From the sequence record PP488543.1: DNA of 64,000 bases; one strand, written 5' to 3'. This document shows positions 6,769-63,146 of this stretch, in pieces. Each line of letters opens with the position of its first letter. Position 1 is the first letter of the stretch. Made by a program: the position numbers and the translations under genes. The notes beneath the pieces are model-generated. The model did not search any database and was not told where the DNA came from. It saw nothing but the letters and a program-made list of their open reading frames with translations. Source of the DNA: Escherichia phage BP9.

Positions 6769-7014
6769 ATGAACAAAGGGTGGACATTTGTAGACGGCGT
6801 TAAAAACATGCCTCTAGGAAAGTATATCGTAGCCATGGCTGATGAGGATGGCAATGTAGATTTCGGAGCTTGCGAGGTTGTTCTTGCAGGATCTGGTAAC
6901 TATGTGAGTAAAACCGGGATAATTAACGGTCAGTTCTACTTTGATCACAACCCTGTTGTAGCGTATATGGCTATGCCAGAGTTCAAGTTCCCAAAGGAGG
7001 GTGCAGATGTTTAA
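6769..7014 (+). CDS. hypothetical protein (81 aa)
   Basis: RBS CAGGAG upstream. Confidence 0.5.
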   Translation: MNKGWTFVDGVKNMPLGKYIVAMADEDGNVDFGACEVVLAGSGNYVSKTGIINGQFYFDHNPVVAYMAMPEFKFPKEGADV

Positions 7015-7204
7015 GCTTAAATCTGCATGGAACATCGCTGTGGGTGACGAGATCCGCATCCCAGGTGGTAAAACTATTATGAAGATATCTCGTATCGAGT
7101 ACGAAGGTGACCGTGTATTCCACATCTTCGCAGAAGATGGTCGAGAAATTTATATACAGGCAGGTTCTCACATCTATATCCGTAAGAAAGGGGACGACAA
7201 ATGA
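7001..7204 (+). CDS. hypothetical protein (67 aa)
   Basis: RBS AAGGAGG upstream. Confidence 0.5.
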   Translation: MQMFKLKSAWNIAVGDEIRIPGGKTIMKISRIEYEGDRVFHIFAEDGREIYIQAGSHIYIRKKGDDK

Positions 7205-7530
7205 CAGAGATCATCATTTCAACTGCAGGGTATGTGTTCCTGACAATCATTGCACTGACTATTTTGGTGACAGTGTATGGGTTTGTTATCCTTCCTATCC
7301 TTGAGACATTTAGTTTGTGTCGGTGTTGGAGAAAAGCTTACGGTCCACAACCATGGAAGGACTGGCCCCACCTGGTGCGCTTAGCGTTCTCTTATGCTTA
7401 CGATCACTCCAGTAGTGCATGCATAACCGGATACCACGCCCACAACTGGAGCTGGGAAGGGTTGAGGAAATGGAATGTTACAAAGACCATACCTCTGCGC
7501 ATGTACAAACCTAAAAACAAAGACAACTGA
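7201..7530 (+). CDS. membrane protein (109 aa)
   Basis: ATGA coupling; hydrophobic N-terminal segment YVFLTIIALTILVTVYGFVILPIL. Confidence 0.5.
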   Translation: MTEIIISTAGYVFLTIIALTILVTVYGFVILPILETFSLCRCWRKAYGPQPWKDWPHLVRLAFSYAYDHSSSACITGYHAHNWSWEGLRKWNVTKTIPLRMYKPKNKDN

Positions 7531-7539
7531 TACTTGAAA

Positions 7540-8450
7540 ATTCCTGGCATATCAAGTATAAGGGGGATTTCTAAAATGGATTTCCTCCTTTTGATATTTC
7601 ACCGGACTGGATATTTTAAAATCCTTAGAAAATCAGAAAATAGATCGAAAACTAAAATGGATTTTTCAGAGTAGGCGCGACAAGCTGAATCACTCATCCT
7701 ATCGTTTGCACCATATTCCAGACCACCATTACAGATTTCCCGCACATGCTCACATCCTTCTACTAGAACTTCCCCCACTTAACATTGACCTTTTATGGTA
7801 ATAATATAACCACTATCTTGAAGTTGCGGTGCAGCTTTCCATGTACTCGATCTGTTTTTCGTTTCAAAGATTGAATTTTCTGAAAATTTTTCTCGATAAA
7901 TTTCCCAGTACTCGATCTGTTTTTCGTTTTCTGAATCGGATTTTCTGGAAATCGTTCCAGCTCTCGACCTGAAATTTTTGGGGACGAAATCGATTTTTCG
8001 TTTTCAGAAATGGATTTTTAAAATTTCTATATGGGAATATTTTATGGGATACTGTTTTATAGGAAATTGTTACGGAGGGTAATTAGCATGCTAATTAAAT
8101 TTATTAAATGCGAGGAGTTCTCATTTAGAATTTTGAATGATAATCATTCTCGTTTGCAGAATAACGGGCACCCCCGGTGATTGTCTCCCGGCCCCTACTG
8201 CCCCGGCTTGTTATTATAGTATCACACAGGACAAAGAAAGCAAGAAGTTTTTGCATAAATTTTTAGACGATAATGATAATCGTTCTCATTTCATGCAGCG
8301 CCCATCCCCGGTGGTTGTCTCCCCCGTCACCGGTGCCTGCCGTCCTTTCGATATGTATATTGTGCCACCTGGCGGGGCCGCTGTCAACACTTTTCAAAAA
8401 AAAATTCTAACCTGATGCGCTAACCGCTGCAACCTGGCGGGGCCAGCCTG
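7540..8450. repeat. repeat-rich noncoding boundary region
   Basis: Direct repeats TACTCGATCTGTTTTTCGTTTT (x2), AAAATGGATTT (x3) and GC-rich CCCCGGTG(A/G)TTGTCTCCC (x2); no convincing ORF. Confidence 0.5.
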
Positions 8451-8498
8451 GTGGGCCTATGCTATAGGATAGGTAACAATTGGAGAGGAGGTACAAAA

Positions 8499-8675
8499 AT
8501 GAAAGGTAATAGGATCCCCCTGGAAAATGTAGCTATTAATGACGCTGAGGCTATCACCCTGGTTGAAAAGGCTATGGCGGGAGCGTTGGAACATAAAGAA
8601 GAGTACGAAAAAATGATGGTTAACCTGTCAGGGGCGGCGGCTGGAGAATTCTACCCAAAAAATAATTTTAACTGA
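8499..8675 (+). CDS. hypothetical protein (58 aa)
   Basis: ATG after GGAGAGGAGG. Confidence 0.4.
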   Translation: MKGNRIPLENVAINDAEAITLVEKAMAGALEHKEEYEKMMVNLSGAAAGEFYPKNNFN

Positions 8676-8759
8676 TGGTTGACAGCTCGTACAGTTATTG
8701 TTATTCTTATCCTCGCAAGGTGAACAACACCACACCAATTAACAGAGAGGATAAAAATC

Positions 8760-8957
8760 ATGAACGCCTACGGAATCAAAGTACGTCGCAACACTCGCCA
8801 GGTGGTCACCAATCAAGTGATTTGCCGGGCGGATGTAACCATCAACAACGGGCAAGGCCTTTATAAATTTCGTCGCGGTCATAGTTATACCCTGCAACAG
8901 CTTAATCGTTGCGCCCTGACAAAAGGCCAGATCAACCACTGGTTTAATAAAAAATAA
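8760..8957 (+). CDS. hypothetical protein (65 aa)
   Basis: ATG after GAGAGGATAAAAATC. Confidence 0.45.
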   Translation: MNAYGIKVRRNTRQVVTNQVICRADVTINNGQGLYKFRRGHSYTLQQLNRCALTKGQINHWFNKK

Positions 8958-51903: not shown

Positions 51904-52203
51904 TCATTTGTCAAGACTTTTAGTCTTTCTTGGAGAGCTTTTTGTTGATCTTTTTCTTTTGTGGTAAATTCCAAGTGCAGCATTTTCTTGGGCACACGTT
52001 TTAACGGTTTTTAGATCAGAGCTTTCAGCTTTAGGTAGGTTAAGCTCCCACCAACCCAACCAGTAAAGCTCTGATTCCGACAGCTGCTCAGATTCAGACT
52101 TCCGATACAAGGCTTGCATACCTCTGATGATATCGTCCAAAGGTGTATCGAATACAAAAGCTGTCTTATCAAATTTCTCTTTTACAGGTTTCTTAGCCAT
52201 CAA
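51904..52203 (-). CDS. hypothetical basic protein (99 aa)
   Basis: ORF in block. Confidence 0.45.
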   Translation of the reverse strand: MMAKKPVKEKFDKTAFVFDTPLDDIIRGMQALYRKSESEQLSESELYWLGWWELNLPKAESSDLKTVKTCAQENAALGIYHKRKRSTKSSPRKTKSLDK

Positions 52204-52657
52204 GGTAACCCTCTATCCACGAAAAGTCAGTTTTCCATTCTGGAACTTTACTAAGCTCACGCCACTCTGCAAAGCAGTCTCGGTAATACGCCTCTGCCAT
52301 ACCCTTGGTGATCTTATTCACCTTAGCCAACTGATTAACTGCCTGAGCATACTTTCCACGGATATTTGCTAACCCAGGATGCACCGATGTGTGACAATCT
52401 GGGCACAACGCTATCAGTCCGACAAGCCGGATCACTCCTTCTTCGAAAGTGTAAAGTTCATGACACTCCACTGGATGTTTGCTGCCTTTACCTCCGCACA
52501 CCTCGCAAGTGTAGTTGGCTTCTCTGTAGCACTTCTTACGGATCTTATCCCACTCACTCTTCTTCACAGCGTTTCGGAGGTTATTATACCAAGCTGTTTC
52601 TGGGATCAGTTGCACAATAAGCCTGCGTTCAGACTTCATTAAACGTCCGTCTTCCAC
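52193..52657 (-). CDS. HNH-like zinc-finger endonuclease
   Basis: YTCEVCGG...H...CPDCH pattern; GTG start 5 nt after GAGGAG. Confidence 0.4.
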   Translation of the reverse strand: MEDGRLMKSERRLIVQLIPETAWYNNLRNAVKKSEWDKIRKKCYREANYTCEVCGGKGSKHPVECHELYTFEEGVIRLVGLIALCPDCHTSVHPGLANIRGKYAQAVNQLAKVNKITKGMAEAYYRDCFAEWRELSKVPEWKTDFSWIEGYLDG

Positions 52658-53530: not shown

Positions 53531-54814
53531 TCATTCAAGCACCTCCCAAGTATCTGGGTTAACATTTCGGACGCAGATACCGACAGGGAATTGGTAGTTG
53601 TTGTCTTCTGTCCTTGCTTGGTATTTGAAGGTGACAAACTTGCCGATCATTTCCTGCATCCTGTCATAGCTACGCTCCTCGTGCGTGCCTTTCATCTTCA
53701 TTTTAACAACAATACCTTCCTTGTCAACGCAGATAAGAACACCTTCATCATTCTTATCTTTCTCAACGTCAATAACTTTCACCTCTGCGTCGTTGAACTT
53801 TTTCCATTTCAATGCTTCAGATGTTCGCTGACCGTACTCGTATTTACCGCAGAAATTACGCATGATAGTACCTTCATATCCTTCGGACATGAATATACCA
53901 ACAGATTCTTCGCAATGATCAACTGTGTACGCAAGCTCTGCGTCAACAACCTTGATATGGTCAAGCATCAGAGTGGTAACGGTATCCTCTGCATCCATAA
54001 GATCCTTGCAGCGTCCAGACTCTGTTTCTGGATCCCACCACACCTTGTCGCTAGGAATATCAAAAATGTGATACTCCAGATCGTAGCTACAGTACCCACC
54101 GTAACGCAAATCATCACGAACAGGCTCAACATCGACAGGAATATCTATCTTGTTGAAGTTTTTGTATGTTGATAAGCCTGCCTTAATTGCTGCATGACGG
54201 CGTTTTTTATCTGCCTCATAGTCTTTATCGATCTCGGCCTGAATCTCTTCCTGTGTGCGCCACCGTTTTGCAAGAGACACTATTTTCTGCAAAGGAAGAC
54301 CATGAATGTATAGTTCCCCATCAAGTTGTTTAATCCCAGTGGTGGAATGGAAAGAACGAAGTTGCTCTAAAAGCTTTCCTTGAATAGGGTAGGACTTATT
54401 ACCACGGGAAATAAATTTAGGCTCACCATTTTGGAAAACAACAAGCAGACGAAGGCCATCTAACTTACGCAAGATCCAGCAAGGTAATTTAAGTGCCTTG
54501 CCACGCTTCAGGTAGTCATGCACCAGCATTGGTAAAAGGTCAACACCCTGCTCGCAATCTTCCATGTTTTCAACATACCCCAGACGGACTTGTTTTTCCC
54601 ACTTACTGATCGCTTCCAGCTCGGCCTGTTGCTCAGCTGTAGTTTCATTGGCACGACCCACGTTCTTAGGTGTGCAGATCGTCTCTTTGTATTGCAGTTT
54701 ACCATCAAGCTTACCAAACTCTACGATAACCTTATCACCATCCGTGAATACTTTCCACTGTTGGTAGCTGCCATCTTTATTCAGTGCGTACAGTGTTGTT
54801 TTGATCTGATGCAT
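53531..54814 (-). CDS. DNA ligase (covalent nucleotidyltransferase; ATP vs NAD type unresolved)
   Basis: Motif I KLDGLR, motif III DGELYI, motif IV EGTIMR, motif V KWKK. Confidence 0.65.
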   Translation of the reverse strand: MHQIKTTLYALNKDGSYQQWKVFTDGDKVIVEFGKLDGKLQYKETICTPKNVGRANETTAEQQAELEAISKWEKQVRLGYVENMEDCEQGVDLLPMLVHDYLKRGKALKLPCWILRKLDGLRLLVVFQNGEPKFISRGNKSYPIQGKLLEQLRSFHSTTGIKQLDGELYIHGLPLQKIVSLAKRWRTQEEIQAEIDKDYEADKKRRHAAIKAGLSTYKNFNKIDIPVDVEPVRDDLRYGGYCSYDLEYHIFDIPSDKVWWDPETESGRCKDLMDAEDTVTTLMLDHIKVVDAELAYTVDHCEESVGIFMSEGYEGTIMRNFCGKYEYGQRTSEALKWKKFNDAEVKVIDVEKDKNDEGVLICVDKEGIVVKMKMKGTHEERSYDRMQEMIGKFVTFKYQARTEDNNYQFPVGICVRNVNPDTWEVLE

Positions 54815-55083
54815 TACTCGGCCTCTTCCTTAAAAATTTTAAACATCTCTTCTTTACTCATTACCAACCAGTCTCCCATAAAGTCAACTAGCCAATCTCC
54901 CTGGTACAAGACAAGGTTACCAAACGGCTCTACAAGCTCACACATGCGACGAAGATCTCTGGTCCGAACAGGTGACGATGTAAACACACCTGTATCAATC
55001 CACCGTTGCAGATCAGATACTGATGAAGAGCTTCCGTCAAACTGGTGGGCTTCTACAGGTTTAGCAAGATTAAATAACGGCAT
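54814..55083 (-). CDS. hypothetical protein (89 aa)
   Basis: ORF abutting ligase gene. Confidence 0.45.
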   Translation of the reverse strand: MPLFNLAKPVEAHQFDGSSSSVSDLQRWIDTGVFTSSPVRTRDLRRMCELVEPFGNLVLYQGDWLVDFMGDWLVMSKEEMFKIFKEEAE

Positions 55084-55378
55084 TGCAGTCCTCCTTCTGT
55101 AGTAGGTCTTTTATAGGATAAACAAGTAAGTGTGGATCGGAATAACGTATAGTCCTATTCTGCCACACTATGAACTTTATTACAACCAAATTTACAATAT
55201 CTTTATCACCATGCAGCCCAACACACACATTTGTCCATATTTTGTGGTTGAAGATCTTGCTATCGATGTAGATTTTAGTGTCAAACTTATCTTCCATTCT
55301 ACCTATAAGTTTGATCAGCTCCTTCATCTGGTCGCCAAACACAGCATCTTTTTCAAGATCTCTGGAATGCTTGTACAT
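55070..55378 (-). CDS. hypothetical protein (102 aa)
   Basis: ORF in block. Confidence 0.45.
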   Translation of the reverse strand: MYKHSRDLEKDAVFGDQMKELIKLIGRMEDKFDTKIYIDSKIFNHKIWTNVCVGLHGDKDIVNLVVIKFIVWQNRTIRYSDPHLLVYPIKDLLQKEDCNAVI

Positions 55379-55440
55379 AACTAACTACCTCACTGCATAC
55401 TTTCCATAATAAGTAAAGCCGGGTAATCCCGGCTATGTTG

Positions 55441-56154
55441 TTAAATATACTCTGTTACATCCTTGAAGCTCGAAGGCTTCATGATCTTACCTTTGCTGTC
55501 AAGGAATATAATAACTTTATTGCCGTTGTAGAACTCCTCTTTAGCAACGAAACCTTCGTAGCGACCACCAAAACGACGCTCAAGATCTTTAATCTCCAAC
55601 TCGATGAGTTGTTCAGCAGGCATATCTGCACTGGCACCGTGTGAATACCGTAGATGGTTGATCCGTGCAAACTTACTGTCATTAGATTTGAGAACCTTCC
55701 GCATCATCCCACACACATCGCCGCGAAGCTGGAACAGCAAAGCTGTTGACAACTCCGCTAAGCGGTAAGCTGACGCTCTTTGCTTGGATGTGTTTTTCGC
55801 AGCGATCAGTGTATCATAGAACTCACCGATCTTGAACTTAAGACCTCGTGGATTATCAAACAGGTTTGACCACTTTTCGTGATTGTCATTAACAAGATAA
55901 GCTGCATAACTTGTGACAACGTGAAGATCGCAGGCCTCTTTTAGCAGGTGATCTCCACCATCACCTTTCTCCAGCTCTTCCAAAACCTCATTGAACTCTT
56001 CCTCAATGAAGCTAAGCTGTAATTCGAATGGTGTGTATGATTTTTTCACTTTAGCTGCCACACGGTTCCAGTTTTCCACCCAGTTGGCAGACCAAAGGTA
56101 GTTTTCAGGCTGGGACAGTTTTTCAAGGTTGTCGATTAATTTGGTGTTCAGCAT
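55441..56154 (-). CDS. all-alpha NTP pyrophosphohydrolase-like (MazG / dimeric dUTPase-like)
   Basis: Acidic helix FIEEEFNEVLEELEKGD followed by KEACDLHVV; weak assignment. Confidence 0.35.
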   Translation of the reverse strand: MLNTKLIDNLEKLSQPENYLWSANWVENWNRVAAKVKKSYTPFELQLSFIEEEFNEVLEELEKGDGGDHLLKEACDLHVVTSYAAYLVNDNHEKWSNLFDNPRGLKFKIGEFYDTLIAAKNTSKQRASAYRLAELSTALLFQLRGDVCGMMRKVLKSNDSKFARINHLRYSHGASADMPAEQLIELEIKDLERRFGGRYEGFVAKEEFYNGNKVIIFLDSKGKIMKPSSFKDVTEYI

Positions 56155-56167
56155 TAAAGGTCTCCTT

Positions 56168-56929
56168 TTAAAGTTCCATAAAGTTTTCTACAGTTTCAAT
56201 AAATGCTTTATCAGAGAAAGCGTCAACAGCACCGTTAAACCATACAGGGATCCCGCGATCCTCATATTGATAAAGGTCGCTACGTGAAATGCCACTTCCA
56301 TCTGCACTCTGCGAATCATACTTGTTTACAATCAGCAGCTTTGTGCCTTTACAAGTAGCAGGAAACAATTCCCAGTTAAAATTAATAACTGTGTTAGAAC
56401 AACCTACCAGGATCACCATATCATTGCTTGTGAGAGATGTCAACAGGTCATACATGTCTGTATACTTAGGAGCAACCTCACCGAAGAACACTACATTGGG
56501 CTTAACCCAGGTATACTTGCCTGTATCTACCTCCGTGTATCCGATATTTTTAATTACATCATTACCTTCATCATCTTCGTAGGTGATTTCAGGCAAATAC
56601 CCGTGGACATGTAAAATATCTTCATGTTTTACACCAGCACGCTCCAGCAAATCATCTACATTGGTGGTAAGGTTGATCACACGACCAGACCAGCGGGAAT
56701 ACCACTCAGCGATCCGAAGATGTGCAAGGTTAGGATCAACACTGCCCAGAGCTACACGACGTGCATTGTAAAAATCATGCACCTTATAGTAGTTCTTGGC
56801 AAAGGTGTGGATGTTGCACACCTCATCGATGCTGAAATTCTCCCACATTGCAGTGCTACCAGATCGGAAAGTGGGAATACCAGATTCAGCGCTCAAACCC
56901 GCACCGGATATAATAATCAGTCGTCGCAT
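56168..56929 (-). CDS. Sir2-family (sirtuin) protein lacking Zn-ribbon cysteines
   Basis: GAGLSAESGIPTFRSGS, TNVDDL, HG and NVVFFGE sirtuin motifs; no CxxC pairs between HG and VFFGE. Confidence 0.7.
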   Translation of the reverse strand: MRRLIIISGAGLSAESGIPTFRSGSTAMWENFSIDEVCNIHTFAKNYYKVHDFYNARRVALGSVDPNLAHLRIAEWYSRWSGRVINLTTNVDDLLERAGVKHEDILHVHGYLPEITYEDDEGNDVIKNIGYTEVDTGKYTWVKPNVVFFGEVAPKYTDMYDLLTSLTSNDMVILVGCSNTVINFNWELFPATCKGTKLLIVNKYDSQSADGSGISRSDLYQYEDRGIPVWFNGAVDAFSDKAFIETVENFMEL

Positions 56930-56937
56930 AAGTGCCC

Positions 56938-57288
56938 TCAGTAGATGTTTTGTTTAATCTCTATTCCAAACTTTTTAAACGAGTCAGCTGCAAGCATGAA
57001 TTTACGAGCCGCTGATGGATTAGAAGTATGCACGAAAATCTTCACGTTGTCAACTACAGGAGGCTTACCAAATACAAATTTTTCCTCCAACATAGATAGG
57101 CAATCGTACCCTTCGAATACCTCTCCAAGGTCGTTGTCCATATGCCACTCAGAAACGCGTCTGTAGAGCTTTTTATTATCGTTAATAAAATCCATAAACT
57201 CGGAGGAATTCTTTAGCCAAATAGCGTCTGGGAGCCCATAATTTGAAGGATCTCTCAGATCATCCAGCCACACAATCAACTTCTTCAT
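56938..57288 (-). CDS. hypothetical protein (116 aa)
   Basis: ATGA coupling to the RNA ligase-like gene; MKKLIVWLDDLRDP...VHTSNP. Confidence 0.45.
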   Translation of the reverse strand: MKKLIVWLDDLRDPSNYGLPDAIWLKNSSEFMDFINDNKKLYRRVSEWHMDNDLGEVFEGYDCLSMLEEKFVFGKPPVVDNVKIFVHTSNPSAARKFMLAADSFKKFGIEIKQNIY

Positions 57289-58220
57289 TGCATATAGTCC
57301 TCGTTGTGGAAATAGTGGTCAAGTATCTCACGGCGTTCCTGCTCCAGGAGGCAGTTCCACACATCTTCTGTGTAATTGCTACGAATGAAGTTTACCATGC
57401 CGTAAAACTCTTCATCAACACGTTTAAAGATATCATCATCCCAAATCTTCCAAGCTTTACCCCTCATTACGGCCTTCCGTGCCAGATAGTATGGAGACTT
57501 GATCTTCAGCTGCAGGTCGTAAGGGTAGTAAGGCTTACGGATCATATACCCTTCACCTCTTGTTTCTGCAGCTAATTCTTTTGCATAGCTGAACGGAATT
57601 TCACGCACAGTGTGAGGACGTTTTGCACCAAGGTATTTGGCAATCCCATCTAAAGCTGCTTCTGGTAGCATTATTCCAGAATCATTATATCTGCAACCTA
57701 TCAAATATGCGCCATGATCTTCTTGAACAATATGCGGATCTGAAGGGTGACAAATTTCAAACATGAATGTCATGTTTTCATTGCCCATAACCTTCTTGAT
57801 AAGATCTAAATTACCACATTGCTCCTGGATGGTTTCCTTTGCGAGGTTACAATATGGAGAATCAAGAGATCCGGTTGTTGAGAACAATAGTTCACCTTTA
57901 TGAGATGATACCACACCGAGGAATCCGTTCTTTTTCTCTACCGCAGTCACAAGTTTACTGTCCGGTAGGTTGGTGGAGTTTTCTCCCAAGTTAAACACTT
58001 TTGTGAAGGGCCATGCCACAACATTTCCTTCATTCCCGACAACAATGCCTCGGCACTCCAGTAAACGAGGGGACAAATGCCATAAATTGTTGTAAAATAC
58101 TTTTCTAGCATATTTATAGATCTTTAACCCGAGATCTGGGTAATATCTGCTGGTTACAAGACCTTTGTCAACTAGGTCGTCTGCATTAAAATACTTCATC
58201 ATACGTTCCTCATTTGTCAT
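57285..58220 (-). CDS. RNA ligase-like nucleotidyltransferase
   Basis: K-x-N-G (VEKKNGFLG), F-E (MTFMFEICH), EG motif (GEGYMIRKP), K-x-K (LKIKSP); distinct from the DNA ligase at 53531. Confidence 0.5.
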   Translation of the reverse strand: MTNEERMMKYFNADDLVDKGLVTSRYYPDLGLKIYKYARKVFYNNLWHLSPRLLECRGIVVGNEGNVVAWPFTKVFNLGENSTNLPDSKLVTAVEKKNGFLGVVSSHKGELLFSTTGSLDSPYCNLAKETIQEQCGNLDLIKKVMGNENMTFMFEICHPSDPHIVQEDHGAYLIGCRYNDSGIMLPEAALDGIAKYLGAKRPHTVREIPFSYAKELAAETRGEGYMIRKPYYPYDLQLKIKSPYYLARKAVMRGKAWKIWDDDIFKRVDEEFYGMVNFIRSNYTEDVWNCLLEQERREILDHYFHNEDYMQ

Positions 58221-58263
58221 TTTGTCAGTCTATCCTGCCACACAAATAACCTAGTGTCAACAC

Positions 58264-58292
58264 TTGAAATTAACAAAACAGTTAGGTATACT
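58264..58292 (+). promoter_or_regulatory. sigma70-like promoter (TTGAAA-17-TATACT) in divergent region
   Basis: Track ORF start at 58264 is the -35 TTG; real start at 58321. Confidence 0.45.
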
Positions 58293-58320
58293 ATCGTTGA
58301 AATTAAAACGGAGGGTCACT

Positions 58321-58728
58321 ATGTCTAAAATGCTATATATCGTGCGTGGTCTACCAGGGTCTGGCAAATCAACACTGGCAAATGCGCTATCTTTAGAGGG
58401 TCTGTATCCACATTTTGAGAACGACATGTTCTGGTACGACGATGATGGAAATTACAACTGGGATGCAAGTAAAGTCACACTTGCAGCAAAATGGTGCAAA
58501 GATAACGTAGAAGATATGATGCGTATGGGATACGACCGTATCGTGGTAAGTAATACGTTTACAAAAGAAAAATATGTGCAAAAATATATTGACATGGCAA
58601 TCAGTTATGGGTATAGTTATACCGTAATCGTGGTTGAAAACCGCCACGGTAATAAAAGCATTCATGCTTCAGACGAGGTTGTGGATCGTATGGAACGCCA
58701 ACTTAAAAACTGCATTAAACTTAAATGA
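58321..58728 (+). CDS. P-loop polynucleotide kinase-like protein
   Basis: ATG after GGAGGG; Walker A GLPGSGKST; 135 aa. Confidence 0.55.
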   Translation: MSKMLYIVRGLPGSGKSTLANALSLEGLYPHFENDMFWYDDDGNYNWDASKVTLAAKWCKDNVEDMMRMGYDRIVVSNTFTKEKYVQKYIDMAISYGYSYTVIVVENRHGNKSIHASDEVVDRMERQLKNCIKLK

Positions 58729-58735
58729 GGAATGT

Positions 58736-59290
58736 ATGAAATACTTTGTAACAAGCGACACACACTTTCTCCACCAGCGGGTCATGGAGTTTGATTCATG
58801 TCAAAAACACAGATCTCAGTATGATCACAATCTTGACAGTATGAATGCGGGAATCATCGCCGAGTGGAACTCTGTTGTGTCACCTGCAGACACTGTGTTC
58901 CACTTGGGGGATATTGCGTGCACTAATGATAAGAATATCAACAACTTACTTCCAGATATTCTAAATATGTTGAACGGACATATTATTCTTGTTCGTGGCA
59001 ACCATGACACAAGGACGACTGTCAGAATTATGAAAGAGTTCTATCATGAGGTTGTAGATTATTACGAGCTTCGCCACAACAAGAATTTGATCTGTATGAG
59101 CCATTACCAATTTGCAAAGTGGAACAGAAAGCATCACGGATCAGTCCAACTGTTCGGTCATGCTCACGGAACCACACAACAGTTGTTTGGCAGGCAGCTT
59201 GATGTCGGTTGGGATGTGTGGGGGAGACTCTTACCATTAGAAGAGGCATACCGTATTGCAATGAGTTTTGCTATTGACAGCGGGGAGTAA
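58736..59290 (+). CDS. calcineurin-type metallophosphoesterase
   Basis: SDTHF, HLGDIA, VRGNHD, GHAHG metallophosphatase motifs. Confidence 0.65.
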   Translation: MKYFVTSDTHFLHQRVMEFDSCQKHRSQYDHNLDSMNAGIIAEWNSVVSPADTVFHLGDIACTNDKNINNLLPDILNMLNGHIILVRGNHDTRTTVRIMKEFYHEVVDYYELRHNKNLICMSHYQFAKWNRKHHGSVQLFGHAHGTTQQLFGRQLDVGWDVWGRLLPLEEAYRIAMSFAIDSGE

Positions 59291-59337: not shown

Positions 59338-59688
59338 ATGAAAGATGGGGATAAGCTGCTATATCTTAAAGTCCCCCTTGAAATACTGTCTATGTCAAAA
59401 GTTTTGAATGACACAACTGGAGAGGTTGTTGTTCTTGACTTGTATGACAAGATTGTATACTGCTACCTGCACAACTGGTATAAGCTTGGAGGAAATTCAC
59501 GCTTCACACCCAGCACAAGGAAAATTGCAGCAGATGTTGGGATAAAGAAAACAAAAGCAGCAGCGTGCGTTAAAACTTTAGAGTGTGCAGGGGTGGTTGA
59601 AACATCCACACAAGGGAGAGGTAAAAGATGCACATTTTCCAAAGTTTTGCCGCCAGAAGAAGTTATTCGAATGTCAACAACTGGTTAG
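59338..59688 (+). CDS. putative HTH DNA-binding protein (116 aa)
   Basis: RBS AAGGAG; helix-turn-helix-like TRKIAADVGIKKTKAAACVKTLE. Confidence 0.45.
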   Translation: MKDGDKLLYLKVPLEILSMSKVLNDTTGEVVVLDLYDKIVYCYLHNWYKLGGNSRFTPSTRKIAADVGIKKTKAAACVKTLECAGVVETSTQGRGKRCTFSKVLPPEEVIRMSTTG

Positions 59689-62206: not shown

Positions 62207-62281
62207 GCCCTGTTAGCTTAGTGGATAAAGCAGCGGCCTTCTAAGCCGTTGACACTGGTTCGAGTCCAGTACGGGGTGCCA
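62207..62281 (+). tRNA. tRNA-Arg (anticodon TCT)
   Basis: Hand-folded cloverleaf: acceptor GCCCTGT/ACGGGGT, D-stem GCTT/AAGC, anticodon loop CTTCTAA, T-loop TTCGAGT, encoded CCA. Confidence 0.7.
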
Positions 62282-62411
62282 AGTTCTTTTTAATGTAGCT
62301 TACTTTAGCAGAGTAAATCTTCGGCAAGTGGCGGTAACCACTTTACCGATACCTCATAGTTAGTGGTTAGAACACTAGCTATTTTAAAAAGAATTTAAAT
62401 ATTAGTATTTA

Positions 62412-62499
62412 GGTGAGTTAATTCCGTAGGGGTAGCGGGGCAGACTGTAAATCTGTTATCATTGCGATTCGGGTGGTTCGACTCCATCACTCACCACCA
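62412..62499 (+). tRNA. tRNA-Tyr (anticodon GTA), long variable arm
   Basis: Acceptor GGTGAGT/ACTCACC, anticodon loop CTGTAAA, T-loop TTCGACT, CCA encoded; D-arm irregular in hand fold. Confidence 0.55.
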
Positions 62500-62613
62500 A
62501 ATTTATATTTTTAGATGCATAAATCATACAGATAATGGCATTGATATTTATCGTCGTTTATACTAGTCACTAACTGCTCGAAAATCAGTGTCATTATCAG
62601 TATAATTTATAAA

Positions 62614-62704
62614 GGAGGGTAGGGAGCAATGGTGCTCAAGCGGTCTTGAAAACCGTCCCATTGAGGATGACTCGATGATGGTTCGATTCCATTACTCTCC
62701 GCCA
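62614..62704 (+). tRNA. tRNA-Ser (anticodon TGA), long variable arm
   Basis: Acceptor GGAGGGT/ACTCTCC, anticodon loop CTTGAAA, ~20-nt variable arm, T-loop TTCGATT, CCA encoded. Confidence 0.6.
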
Positions 62705-62802
62705 CATTGTTGACCTTGTAATTAAGCGAAAGCCGGAAGCAGAACCGGATTATCAAATGTTACAGTCGTCATCGCCGACTAGCAACATGGTCAACATACT
62801 GA

Positions 62803-62901
62803 GCTAGGTAAGCCCTTTGGCAAGGGCGAGGATTTTTAATCCTGAAAATAGACGAGGTAGTCGTTGAATACATAGGTGGTTCGATTCCACCGCCTAGCAC
62901 C
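62803..62901 (+). tRNA. aberrant tRNA-like element (99 nt; anticodon-loop TTT, oversized variable region)
   Basis: Acceptor GCTAGGT/GCCTAGC, D-arm GCCC/GGGC, loop TTTTTAA, T-arm GGTGG-TTCGATT-CCACC, but ~30 nt between anticodon stem and T-arm. Confidence 0.3.
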
Positions 62902-62906
62902 TTTTT

Positions 62907-62982
62907 GCTGATGTAGCACAATTGGTAGTGCAATTGATTTGTAATCAATAGGTTGCAGGTTCAAGTCCTGCCATCAGCACCA
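62907..62982 (+). tRNA. tRNA-Thr (anticodon TGT)
   Basis: Acceptor GCTGATG/CATCAGC, D-stem GCAC/GTGC, anticodon loop TTTGTAA, T-loop TTCAAGT, CCA encoded. Confidence 0.75.
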
Positions 62983-62983
62983 A

Positions 62984-63058
62984 GGCCCTGTAGCTGGAAG
63001 GTTCAAGCAAGCGACTCATAATCGCCAGACGGTGGTTCAATTCCACCCAGGGCCACCA
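62984..63058 (+). tRNA. tRNA-Met (anticodon CAT; Ile2 not excluded)
   Basis: Acceptor GGCCCTG/CAGGGCC, anticodon loop CTCATAA, T-loop TTCAATT, CCA encoded. Confidence 0.7.
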
Positions 63059-63069
63059 AATAGTAAATA

Positions 63070-63146
63070 CTCCGCGTAGCTCAGCTTGGTAGAGCGCCTG
63101 ATTTGGGATCAGGAGGTCGAGTGTTCGAATCACTCCGTGGAGACCA
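63070..63146 (+). tRNA. tRNA-Pro (anticodon TGG)
   Basis: Acceptor CTCCGCG/CGTGGAG, D-stem GCTC/GAGC, anticodon loop TTTGGGA, T-loop TTCGAAT, CCA encoded. Confidence 0.75.

Follow-up and report, generated by a model that had tools for sequence, protein, structure and literature searches.

The stretch of DNA analysed here, a window of 64,000 nucleotides (nt) from Escherichia phage BP9 (PP488543.1), derives from an rV5-like Escherichia coli phage (Vequintavirus) and is 96-99% identical to deposited rV5-like genomes. Within it we investigated a locus that contains a phage sirtuin of 253 amino acids (aa), referred to as Sir2, together with genes for RNA-end-processing enzymes (Table 1). Over the 3.8 kb around the Sir2 locus, identity is 98.9% to phage vB_EcoM_YN3 and 90-97% to over 100 genomes in the databases. 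Between 18 and 25 GenBank records, approximately, that are labelled "Campylobacter phage" (MG0656xx, host C. jejuni) also match positions 55000-58800 of the window at 96-99% identity, which suggests that the host of this collection was mis-assigned or that coliphage contamination is present.

Four tightly packed genes follow each other on the minus strand in the order RNA ligase, cREC, Sir2 and a 237-aa gene, and end at an intrinsic-terminator-like hairpin. The TGA of the ligase gene overlaps the ATG of the 116-aa cREC gene in an ATGA at 57285-57288, and the remaining spacers measure 8 nt (cREC to Sir2) and 13 nt (Sir2 to the 237-aa gene). The four genes constitute one operon-like unit, and the coupling of ligase and cREC together with the close packing under a single terminator suggests that they are co-expressed. 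A sigma-70 scan of the intergenic region 58221-58320 gave no convincing minus-strand promoter for the operon, the only one found being the plus-strand site of the kinase gene; this region between ligase and kinase, at about 58221-58320, is a point of divergent transcription. The cumulative GC skew has its minimum at 56-58 kb, and sign changes of the skew there and at about 22 kb mark the edges of a large minus-strand gene block. A previous sequence-only reading of this DNA had described three open reading frames, all of which are present on the minus strand at the coordinates given, and a translational coupling to an RNA-ligase-like gene, which is borne out by the overlap and by the Rnl1-type Pfam match of the ligase. 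The repair unit is wider than the region given in that reading, as it adds the ligase, the terminator (55417-55434) and the divergent kinase/phosphoesterase pair (58321-59290).

Table 1. Features of the Sir2 locus and its surroundings, in positions of the window
Feature	Position	Strand	Evidence or remark
T4 Rnl1-type ATP-dependent RNA ligase, 311 aa, first operon gene	57285-58220	-	Pfam RNA_lig_T4_1 E 9.3e-15, 55.5 bits (cut-off 28.3); phrog_562 3.9e-66
cREC, cyclic-phosphate-processing receiver-like protein, 116 aa	56938-57288	-	Pfam PF20274 cREC_REC
Zinc-less class-III-like sirtuin (Sir2), 253 aa	56168-56929	-	Pfam SIR2, phrog_2162, AlphaFold2/Foldseek
All-alpha nucleoside triphosphate (NTP) pyrophosphohydrolase superfamily protein, 237 aa, last operon gene	55441-56154	-	family motif and family-level profiles
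Intrinsic-terminator-like hairpin, end of the four-gene operon	55417-55434	-	stem of 7 bp (6 GC), T-rich tail; adjoins the stop at 55441
Promoter-like site TTGAAA-17-TATACT	58264-58292	+	upstream of the kinase gene
P-loop polynucleotide-kinase-like protein, 135 aa, divergent from the ligase	58321-58728	+	Pfam AAA_33 3.5e-10; phrog_2071 1.3e-54; phrog_505 "polynucleotide kinase" 3.6e-10
Calcineurin-like metallophosphoesterase, 184 aa, candidate remover of 2',3'-cyclic or 3'-phosphate	58736-59290	+	Pfam Metallophos 2.5e-6, 28.5 bits (cut-off 21.5); phrog_547 1.3e-51
ATP-dependent DNA ligase, just downstream of the operon	53531-54814	-	Pfam DNA_ligase_A_M and OB_2; phrog_114 2.7e-83
Array of tRNA genes, some 3 kb from the cluster	62207-63146	+	ARAGORN 6 genes; Rfam 5 tRNAs

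Family, zinc loss and class of the sirtuin

All core motifs of a sirtuin that the sequence-only reading had listed can be read in the 253-aa protein, namely GAGLSAESGIPTFR (residues 9-22), TNVDDL (89-94), H109-G110 and NVVFFGE (145-151). The Pfam SIR2 model (PF02146) matches at E 1.9e-27 with 96.8 bits (cut-off 24), and phrog_2162 at 1.6e-108; the family assignment is secure, and many GenBank records already label the gene Sir2. In canonical sirtuins the small domain holds a structural, non-catalytic Zn2+ by means of two cysteine pairs (PMC8556138). The phage protein has only three cysteines, C38, C177 and C193, and all of them are outside residues 111-147, the segment between H109-G110 and F148-F149-G-E151 in which the canonical CxxC...CxxC region falls in the alignment with CobB. 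The four-cysteine site is likewise missing in 29 of 29 aligned members of the Sir2 clade, in agreement with the absence of a zinc module noted earlier. As the zinc is structural and not catalytic, its absence does not exclude activity of Sir2. Sir2La was considered as a precedent for a deacylase sirtuin without zinc, but the literature examined did not bear this out. An AlphaFold2 (AF2) model with a mean predicted local distance difference test score (pLDDT) of 89.1 and a predicted template-modelling score of 0.88 still builds the three-stranded sheet of the small domain (strands 110-118, 124-128 and 142-146), and the block-mean pLDDT over residues 101-160 is 93-95.

A full-library search returned 5,477 relatives of Sir2 at E<=1e-3, and individual residues were surveyed in the representatives of the 150 nearest clusters at 50% identity. 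H109 and N90 are each kept in 149 of these, D92 in 144, Y54 in 143 and R57 in 111, while the GAG and FR motifs are kept in at least 136; judging by these residues, Sir2 is apparently active. The zinc segment contains one cysteine at most in 47 of the 142 clusters that could be scored, including 17 of the 20 nearest, and three or more in 95. A central IGY-like motif is common to both groups (32/47 zinc-less and 48/95 zinc-containing representatives). Jumbo-phage relatives with 38-39% identity keep cysteine-rich modules while most of the nearest clusters have lost them, and on this comparison of sequences zinc loss is a derived trait that is common in the phage-type radiation and occurs alongside a full catalytic apparatus. 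An oddity of a single gene is ruled out by the 29 clade members and the 47 clusters. The members of the clade are found in phage records or phage-sized contigs, and they are uniformly acidic, with isoelectric points (pI) of 4.6-5.8.

In a Foldseek search the model of Sir2 matched CobB, Sir2-Af1 and SIRT5 best (E 5e-19 to 1e-14; template-modelling scores of 0.78-0.84, normalised to the length of CobB), with 24-27% identity in the structural alignments to class III sirtuins. The best solved relatives by sequence are the same proteins (E. coli CobB, 1s5p, E 3.7e-21; SIRT5, E 6.6e-21; Sir2-Af1). Residues F53-Y54-N-A-R57-R58 align with FYNARR of CobB and FYHYRR of SIRT5, the Tyr/Arg pair of class III, which in SIRT5 binds the carboxylates of succinyl and malonyl groups. 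The closest similarity by sequence and fold and the FYxxR Tyr/Arg pair make the protein class-III-like (CobB/SIRT5 type), thus providing the placement among sirtuin classes for which profile and structure searches had been proposed. Phage Sir2 has the Rossmann and small-domain fold in common with the class III sirtuins (CobB 1s5p and 6rxq, Sir2-Af1, human SIRT5), as well as the GAGxSxxSGIPxFR, TxNxD, HG and FGE motifs and the FYNxRR pair. It differs from them in the absence of zinc cysteines, in a substrate/NAD loop that reads VINF in the clade of the window's protein instead of the canonical V-x-P, and in residing in operons with RNA-end-processing enzymes. The NCBIfam models for "NAD-dependent protein deacylase" are its best matches in that library, but all seven remain below their cut-offs (best 121.9 bits versus 243), and because every one of them (NF001753, NF040867 etc.) scores so far below, phage Sir2 is, by its sequence, not a CobB orthologue.

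These observations bear directly on an explanation in which Sir2 would be a CobB/SIRT5-like protein lysine deacylase (deacetylase/desuccinylase) that reprogrammes host proteins or protects lysines of phage enzymes from acylation by acyl phosphates or acyl-CoA, for example the adenylylation lysines of the RNA and DNA ligases or lysines of the kinase, so that its place in the repair block would be regulatory or incidental. The nearest sequences and folds, the names of the top NCBIfam models and the retention of all catalytic residues with the Tyr/Arg pair argue for such an activity, and an acidic protein would fit basic protein substrates. The distance to the deacylase cut-offs argues against it, as does the loss of the zinc ligands and of V-x-P, since the zinc module adjoins the substrate-binding loop (PMC8556138) and peptide binding may therefore be altered; moreover, no acetyltransferase partner is present. 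Taking also the genomic contexts described below into account, we consider a protein deacylase rather unlikely, although it is the main rival of the reading adopted below.

The sequence-only reading had suggested that the phage copy could manipulate host nicotinamide adenine dinucleotide (NAD+) or protein modification. In such a case Sir2 would be an ADP-ribosyltransferase, with proteins or nucleic acids as targets, or else an NAD+ glycohydrolase, and would serve host takeover or interfere with NAD+-based immunity. Zinc-less Sir2 domains are typical of defence NADases, in which the Cys4 zinc site is absent. Sirtuin scaffolds perform all three reactions, and phages do employ ADP-ribosylation for takeover, as T4 does with Alt and Mod (PMC9503650). 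The phage protein belongs to the same Sir2 superfamily as the defence enzymes ThsA, DSR1/2, Sir2-HerA and pAgo-Sir2, but unlike them it is a standalone protein of 253 aa without sensor or effector partner domains, and its partners are repair enzymes. No PADLOC defence model matched Sir2 at E<=0.01, and neither a defence-type nor a macro-linked Sir2 occurs among the 50 best structural matches listed. We reject a defence-type or NADase Sir2 on the lack of a PADLOC match and on the deacylases CobB, Sir2-Af1 and SIRT5 being the nearest folds. The catalytic His is conserved, as are pocket residues of the deacylase type, the operon contains no macro, ADP-ribosylglycohydrolase (ARG) or NADAR partner, and NAD+ depletion would presumably hurt a phage whose putative repair, like the metabolism of its host, needs NAD+. 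Altogether, none of the observations points to manipulation of host NAD+, and an ADP-ribosyltransferase or NAD+ glycohydrolase appears improbable.

cREC and the other putative RNA-end enzymes

The 116-aa protein between Sir2 and the RNA ligase, taken as unknown in the sequence-only reading, is matched by Pfam PF20274 (cREC_REC) at E 1.7e-14 with 54.7 bits against a cut-off of 27, which rules out an orphan gene. Across 22 homologues, with identities as low as 37%, D51, D53, H87-T-S-N-P91 and K96 are invariant, and at least 90% of these proteins conserve D9/D10; a sequence search for solved-structure relatives found none. cREC has been defined as a receiver-like domain and predicted to be a cyclic phosphodiesterase that opens cyclic phosphates (Iyer et al., 2021, PMC7824862), and its partners are exclusively RNA ligases and enzymes of NAD+ and ADP-ribose (ADPr), never histidine kinases (PMC7824862). 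The loci examined here agree with this description: the partner is the Rnl1-type ligase in the window, a PF09414 RNA ligase in Providencia phage PSTCR5 and a block of DNA ligase, metallophosphoesterase and MazG-like gene in phAPEC8, and no histidine kinase was seen in any of the cREC loci. In PSTCR5 (L056 in our numbering of loci, 6989-8957) cREC lies inside a tRNA array, two genes from the ligase; Yersinia jumbo phage fHe-Yen9-03 (L057, 7004-7726) has two tandem cREC paralogues in a tRNA array; and in phAPEC8 (L055, 6995-7339) the gene is in or beside such an array. There are 356 deposited phage genomes with cREC, in almost all of which it is annotated as "hypothetical protein". Identification of the 116-aa gene as cREC shifts the reading of the locus from a Sir2 beside repair genes to a Sir2 inside an NAD+/cyclic-phosphate repair module.

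The RNA-repair setting that had been proposed for Sir2 stands, with ligase, cREC, kinase and phosphoesterase all nearby. The RNA ligase contains a candidate motif-I lysine in VEKKNGF (K-x-N-G) and belongs to the T4 Rnl1 family, although at 38 bits versus 242 for the NCBIfam T4 RnlA equivalog it is no orthologue of T4 Rnl1; no solved-structure relatives were found by sequence search. The homologue of the kinase in phage MaxTheCat is annotated as polynucleotide kinase, and the metallophosphoesterase gene stays with the cluster in Mydovirus-type phages. The set resembles T4 Pnkp and Rnl1, which act against the PrrC anticodon nuclease, in that an Rnl1-type ligase and the functions of a 5'-kinase and a 3'-end phosphoesterase are encoded here too; these are presumed to counter tRNA-cleaving host defences (PMC2610378). 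The present cluster differs in that it encodes kinase and phosphatase as two proteins, in that a metallophosphoesterase takes the place of the HAD phosphatase domain, and in its additional components cREC, Sir2 and the pyrophosphatase.

For the 237-aa protein, described earlier as MazG-like and all-alpha, no significant Pfam match was obtained with the single sequence, which scores 13.7 bits versus 21.3 with PRA-PH (PF01503; E 0.086) and does not match MazG (PF03819). Within its family, PRA-PH matches 17 of 17 members and MazG 15 of 17 (best E 4.8e-6 and 5.9e-5), and an EEEFNE...EACD motif is invariant. The protein has the four-helix-bundle core and EExxE...ExxD metal-binding motif of the superfamily. 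The AF2 model is helical as far as about residue 156, beyond which lies a small C-terminal extension of alpha/beta type, about 80 residues long, and a Foldseek search against the PDB gave no match at E<=0.001. The N-terminal domain is a member of the all-alpha NTP pyrophosphohydrolase superfamily (MazG/HisE/dimeric dUTPase), and its closest fold is dimeric dUTPase. The MazG-like label is therefore valid for the superfamily and not for MazG proper, for which the copy in the window is below the Pfam threshold, and "all-alpha" applies as far as the extension begins.

In the sequence-only reading the arrangement was taken to be unexplored. This neighbourhood had, however, been described in silico, with Escherichia phage V5 as prototype and with a KptA-like hypothesis for the sirtuin (Iyer, Burroughs, Anantharaman and Aravind, 2022, PMC9503650, section 3.7.3). 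Their type 2, named for Escherichia phage V5 and Proteus phage Mydo, comprises the same sirtuin, T4-like tRNA ligase, cREC, nucleotide kinase, MazG-superfamily pyrophosphatase and calcineurin-like phosphoesterase; there is no essential difference to the present locus, and both are the same system. These authors proposed that the sirtuin strips 2'-phosphates from RNA as KptA/Tpt1 do and that opening of the cyclic phosphate, or processing of ADPr>P, falls to cREC and the other phosphoesterases (PMC9503650). At the corresponding place in jumbo phages they report a Nudix pyrophosphatase, in some cases as a fusion with cREC (PMC9503650), which points to a role of the pyrophosphatase inside the pathway. 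The operon arrangement and the KptA-like hypothesis are accordingly already known, and what is added here is the zinc loss, the class placement, the pI and the linkage counts; the main text of PMC9503650 is silent on the loss of zinc ligands in Sir2, its acidic pI and the frequency of Sir2 without cREC or ligase.

Sir2 contexts in other phages and neighbouring genes

Sir2-bearing phages include T5-like, rV5-like, Mydovirus and Phapecoctavirus members and some jumbo phages. We surveyed 52 viral-contig loci with Sir2 relatives by mapping the proteins of the window onto them. The whole block is found in eight of these, one rV5-like (L002) and the others on contigs of Mydovirus type of about 94-153 kb (L023-25, L028, L031, L042 and L050), whose proteins are about 55% identical. 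Six of the latter have the order metallophosphoesterase, RNA ligase, cREC, kinase, Sir2, DNA ligase, orf89 and MazG-like gene; in L042 cREC precedes the metallophosphoesterase. Parts of the block are present on two truncated contigs, and two further loci show no more of it than a DNA ligase at a distance of about 6 kb. The DNA ligase belongs to the same conserved block in relatives (L023-L050, phAPEC8). In Phapecoctavirus-type genomes cREC, a metallophosphoesterase-like gene, DNA ligase and MazG-like gene stand together beside the tRNA array. A universal linkage of Sir2, ligase and cREC is ruled out by the T5-like and Phapecoctavirus loci.

The T5 orthologue of Sir2 (57% identical) is in one operon with T5.105, a phosphatase of the HAD_SAK_2 family ("Swiss-army-knife RNA repair"; E 4e-20), an arrangement of Sir2 and HAD that corresponds to type 3 of Iyer et al. 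(PMC9503650). T5.105 itself is mis-annotated as "Sir2" in RefSeq. The T5 operon (T5.100-T5.107; L003/L054) also contains two paralogous DUF7415 proteins, T5.106 and T5.107, and lies directly after nrdD. On a 279-kb jumbo-phage contig (L051, 7721-11902), a zinc-containing Sir2 relative is located between DUF4326 and a nucleoside 2-deoxyribosyltransferase-like gene, two genes from an RlaP RNA-repair nucleotidyltransferase. This NAD- and nucleoside-centred context is unlike the three neighbourhood types of Iyer et al.

These contexts enter the case for a deacylase on both sides: most Sir2-bearing phages lack an adjoining cREC and RNA ligase, and in Mydovirus-type phages the gene next to Sir2 is that of the DNA ligase, whereas in three independent lineage contexts the partners of Sir2 are RNA-end phosphatases or nucleotidyltransferases and not acyltransferases. 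They also bear on the possibility that the operon is a mixed early/middle cassette, in which the pyrophosphatase would perform dUTPase-like house-cleaning for DNA replication and Sir2 would act on a small NAD-derived metabolite, neither of them taking part in RNA repair. Phage operons often mix functions, the MazG-like pyrophosphatase tracks the DNA ligase rather than Sir2 in relatives, and the T5 Sir2 operon lies beside ribonucleotide reductase genes. Yet Sir2 is repeatedly linked to RNA-end enzymes, in separate lineages and with partners from different families, ligase and cREC are coupled within four closely packed genes that share one terminator, and the jumbo-phage Nudix occupies the equivalent place (PMC9503650), all of which renders a mixed cassette very improbable.

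The tRNAs of the array in the window are likely to be substrates of the repair module or to benefit from it. ARAGORN and Rfam differ on part of this array: 62412-62496 (+) is called by Rfam only, and a 91-nt tRNA-Ser at 62614-62704 (+) by ARAGORN only (Rfam at gathering score). A 99-nt tRNA-like gene at 62803-62901 (+), reported by ARAGORN as "tRNA-???" and without a call from Rfam at gathering score, carries a UUU (Lys)-like anticodon loop (GAGGA-TTTTTAA-TCCT) and behind it an extra arm of about 28 nt, and its homologue in MaxTheCat is annotated as a 97-nt tRNA-Lys. Because tRNA-Lys(UUU) is the classical target of anticodon nucleases, this atypical gene, 3.5 kb from the repair cluster, may on its sequence represent a nuclease-resistant decoy or a replacement. 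After the phosphoesterase, 59338-59688 (+) encodes another 116-aa protein, annotated "putative transcriptional regulator" in MaxTheCat and kept beside the kinase/phosphoesterase pair in close relatives; it is possible that it regulates the repair genes. Near the DNA ligase, between a 99-aa open reading frame and the endolysin region, lies an HNH homing-endonuclease-like gene (52193-52657, minus strand; phrog_5200, 2.4e-72), of which a relative's copy is annotated "putative homing endonuclease".

Probable RNA repair and the possible role of Sir2

We consider it highly probable that the six genes, i.e., the four-gene operon and the divergent kinase and metallophosphoesterase, form a heal-and-seal module for RNA, mainly tRNA. 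This reading is based on the complete enzyme set within 4 kb, the tight operon, the synteny kept through rearrangement, the replacement of the ligase family beside cREC and the nearby tRNA arrays. The module probably acts against ribonucleases of the host whose cuts produce 2',3'-cyclic-phosphate and 5'-OH ends. From the gene identities, the operon structure, the intact catalytic residues of the sirtuin and the conserved synteny, we infer the following enzymatic steps and substrates. cREC, the metallophosphoesterase or both would open or remove the 2',3'-cyclic phosphate, the product of cREC being a 3'-OH/2'-PO4 end, the kinase would phosphorylate the 5'-OH to 5'-PO4, and the Rnl1-type ligase would seal the nick. 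Sir2 would then spend one NAD+ to strip the 2'-PO4 left at the end or junction, with a phosphate oxygen attacking C1'' of NAD+, which would amount to the KptA/Tpt1 reaction on a sirtuin scaffold. The by-product of this step might be degraded by cREC, the phosphoesterase and the pyrophosphatase.

For the Sir2 step we adopt the Tpt1-like activity hypothesised by Iyer et al. (2022) as the leading candidate, albeit a tentative one that is drawn by analogy. Sirtuins and Tpt1 are two examples of one two-step mechanism, in which an oxygen of the substrate attacks C1'' of NAD+ and O2'' of the ribose subsequently attacks the adduct (PMC11417386), and this common logic makes Tpt1-like chemistry of Sir2 plausible. 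The analogy is one of function only, as Sir2 is not a member of the KptA/Tpt1 family, which has a catalytic tetrad of Arg-His-Arg-Arg. Similarity in sequence or structure was neither to be expected nor observed, and the folds are unrelated, KptA belonging to the ADP-ribosyltransferase (ART) superfamily (PMC9503650). Phage Sir2 and KptA/Tpt1 also resemble each other in their partners, which in both cases include a cyclic phosphodiesterase, a kinase and an RNA ligase that depends on ATP; the fungal Trl1/Tpt1 pathway shows this division of tasks (PMC10946426).

Several observations weigh against RNA repair as the function of Sir2. The protein lacks none of the hallmarks of a class III deacylase (of the Tyr/Arg pair, Y54 is kept in 143/150 and R57 in 111/150 clusters), and its nearest folds are CobB and SIRT5, while the acidic pI of the clade is atypical for an enzyme that clamps RNA. 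E. coli already encodes KptA. Full removal of the cyclic phosphate by the metallophosphoesterase would make 2'-phosphate removal redundant, as with T4 Pnkp/Rnl1. The repair genes of the window (ligase, cREC, kinase and phosphoesterase) are absent within 8 kb of Sir2 in 40 of the 52 loci, including T5 (L003; T5.102), and Sir2 is present in 975 deposited phage genomes as opposed to 356 for cREC. In Phapecoctavirus Sir2 is apart from the cREC/ligase block, among neighbours that are uninformative. Finally, a literature search found no experimental study of phage sirtuins of this clade or of cREC.

It is a more doubtful idea that the zinc-less clade represents the first sirtuin to act on nucleic acid ends, as an NAD+-dependent RNA 2'-phosphotransferase whose small domain has been remodelled and whose Tyr/Arg anion pocket now binds an RNA phosphate instead of acyl-lysine, that cREC is the first receiver-fold cyclic phosphodiesterase, and that enterobacterial phages possess a fungal-type route of tRNA repair, in which a 2'-phosphate is left behind. 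As the 2'-phosphotransferase idea itself has been published (Iyer et al., 2022), its demonstration alone would be new. The Sir2 clade offers a natural experiment in the zinc-free folding of the sirtuin small domain. If the proposed reaction is true, removal of RNA 2'-phosphates by a sirtuin would constitute a new reaction class for a heavily studied family and a case of convergence on Tpt1 chemistry, and it would explain how approximately 1,000 sequenced phages cope with host defences that cut tRNA.

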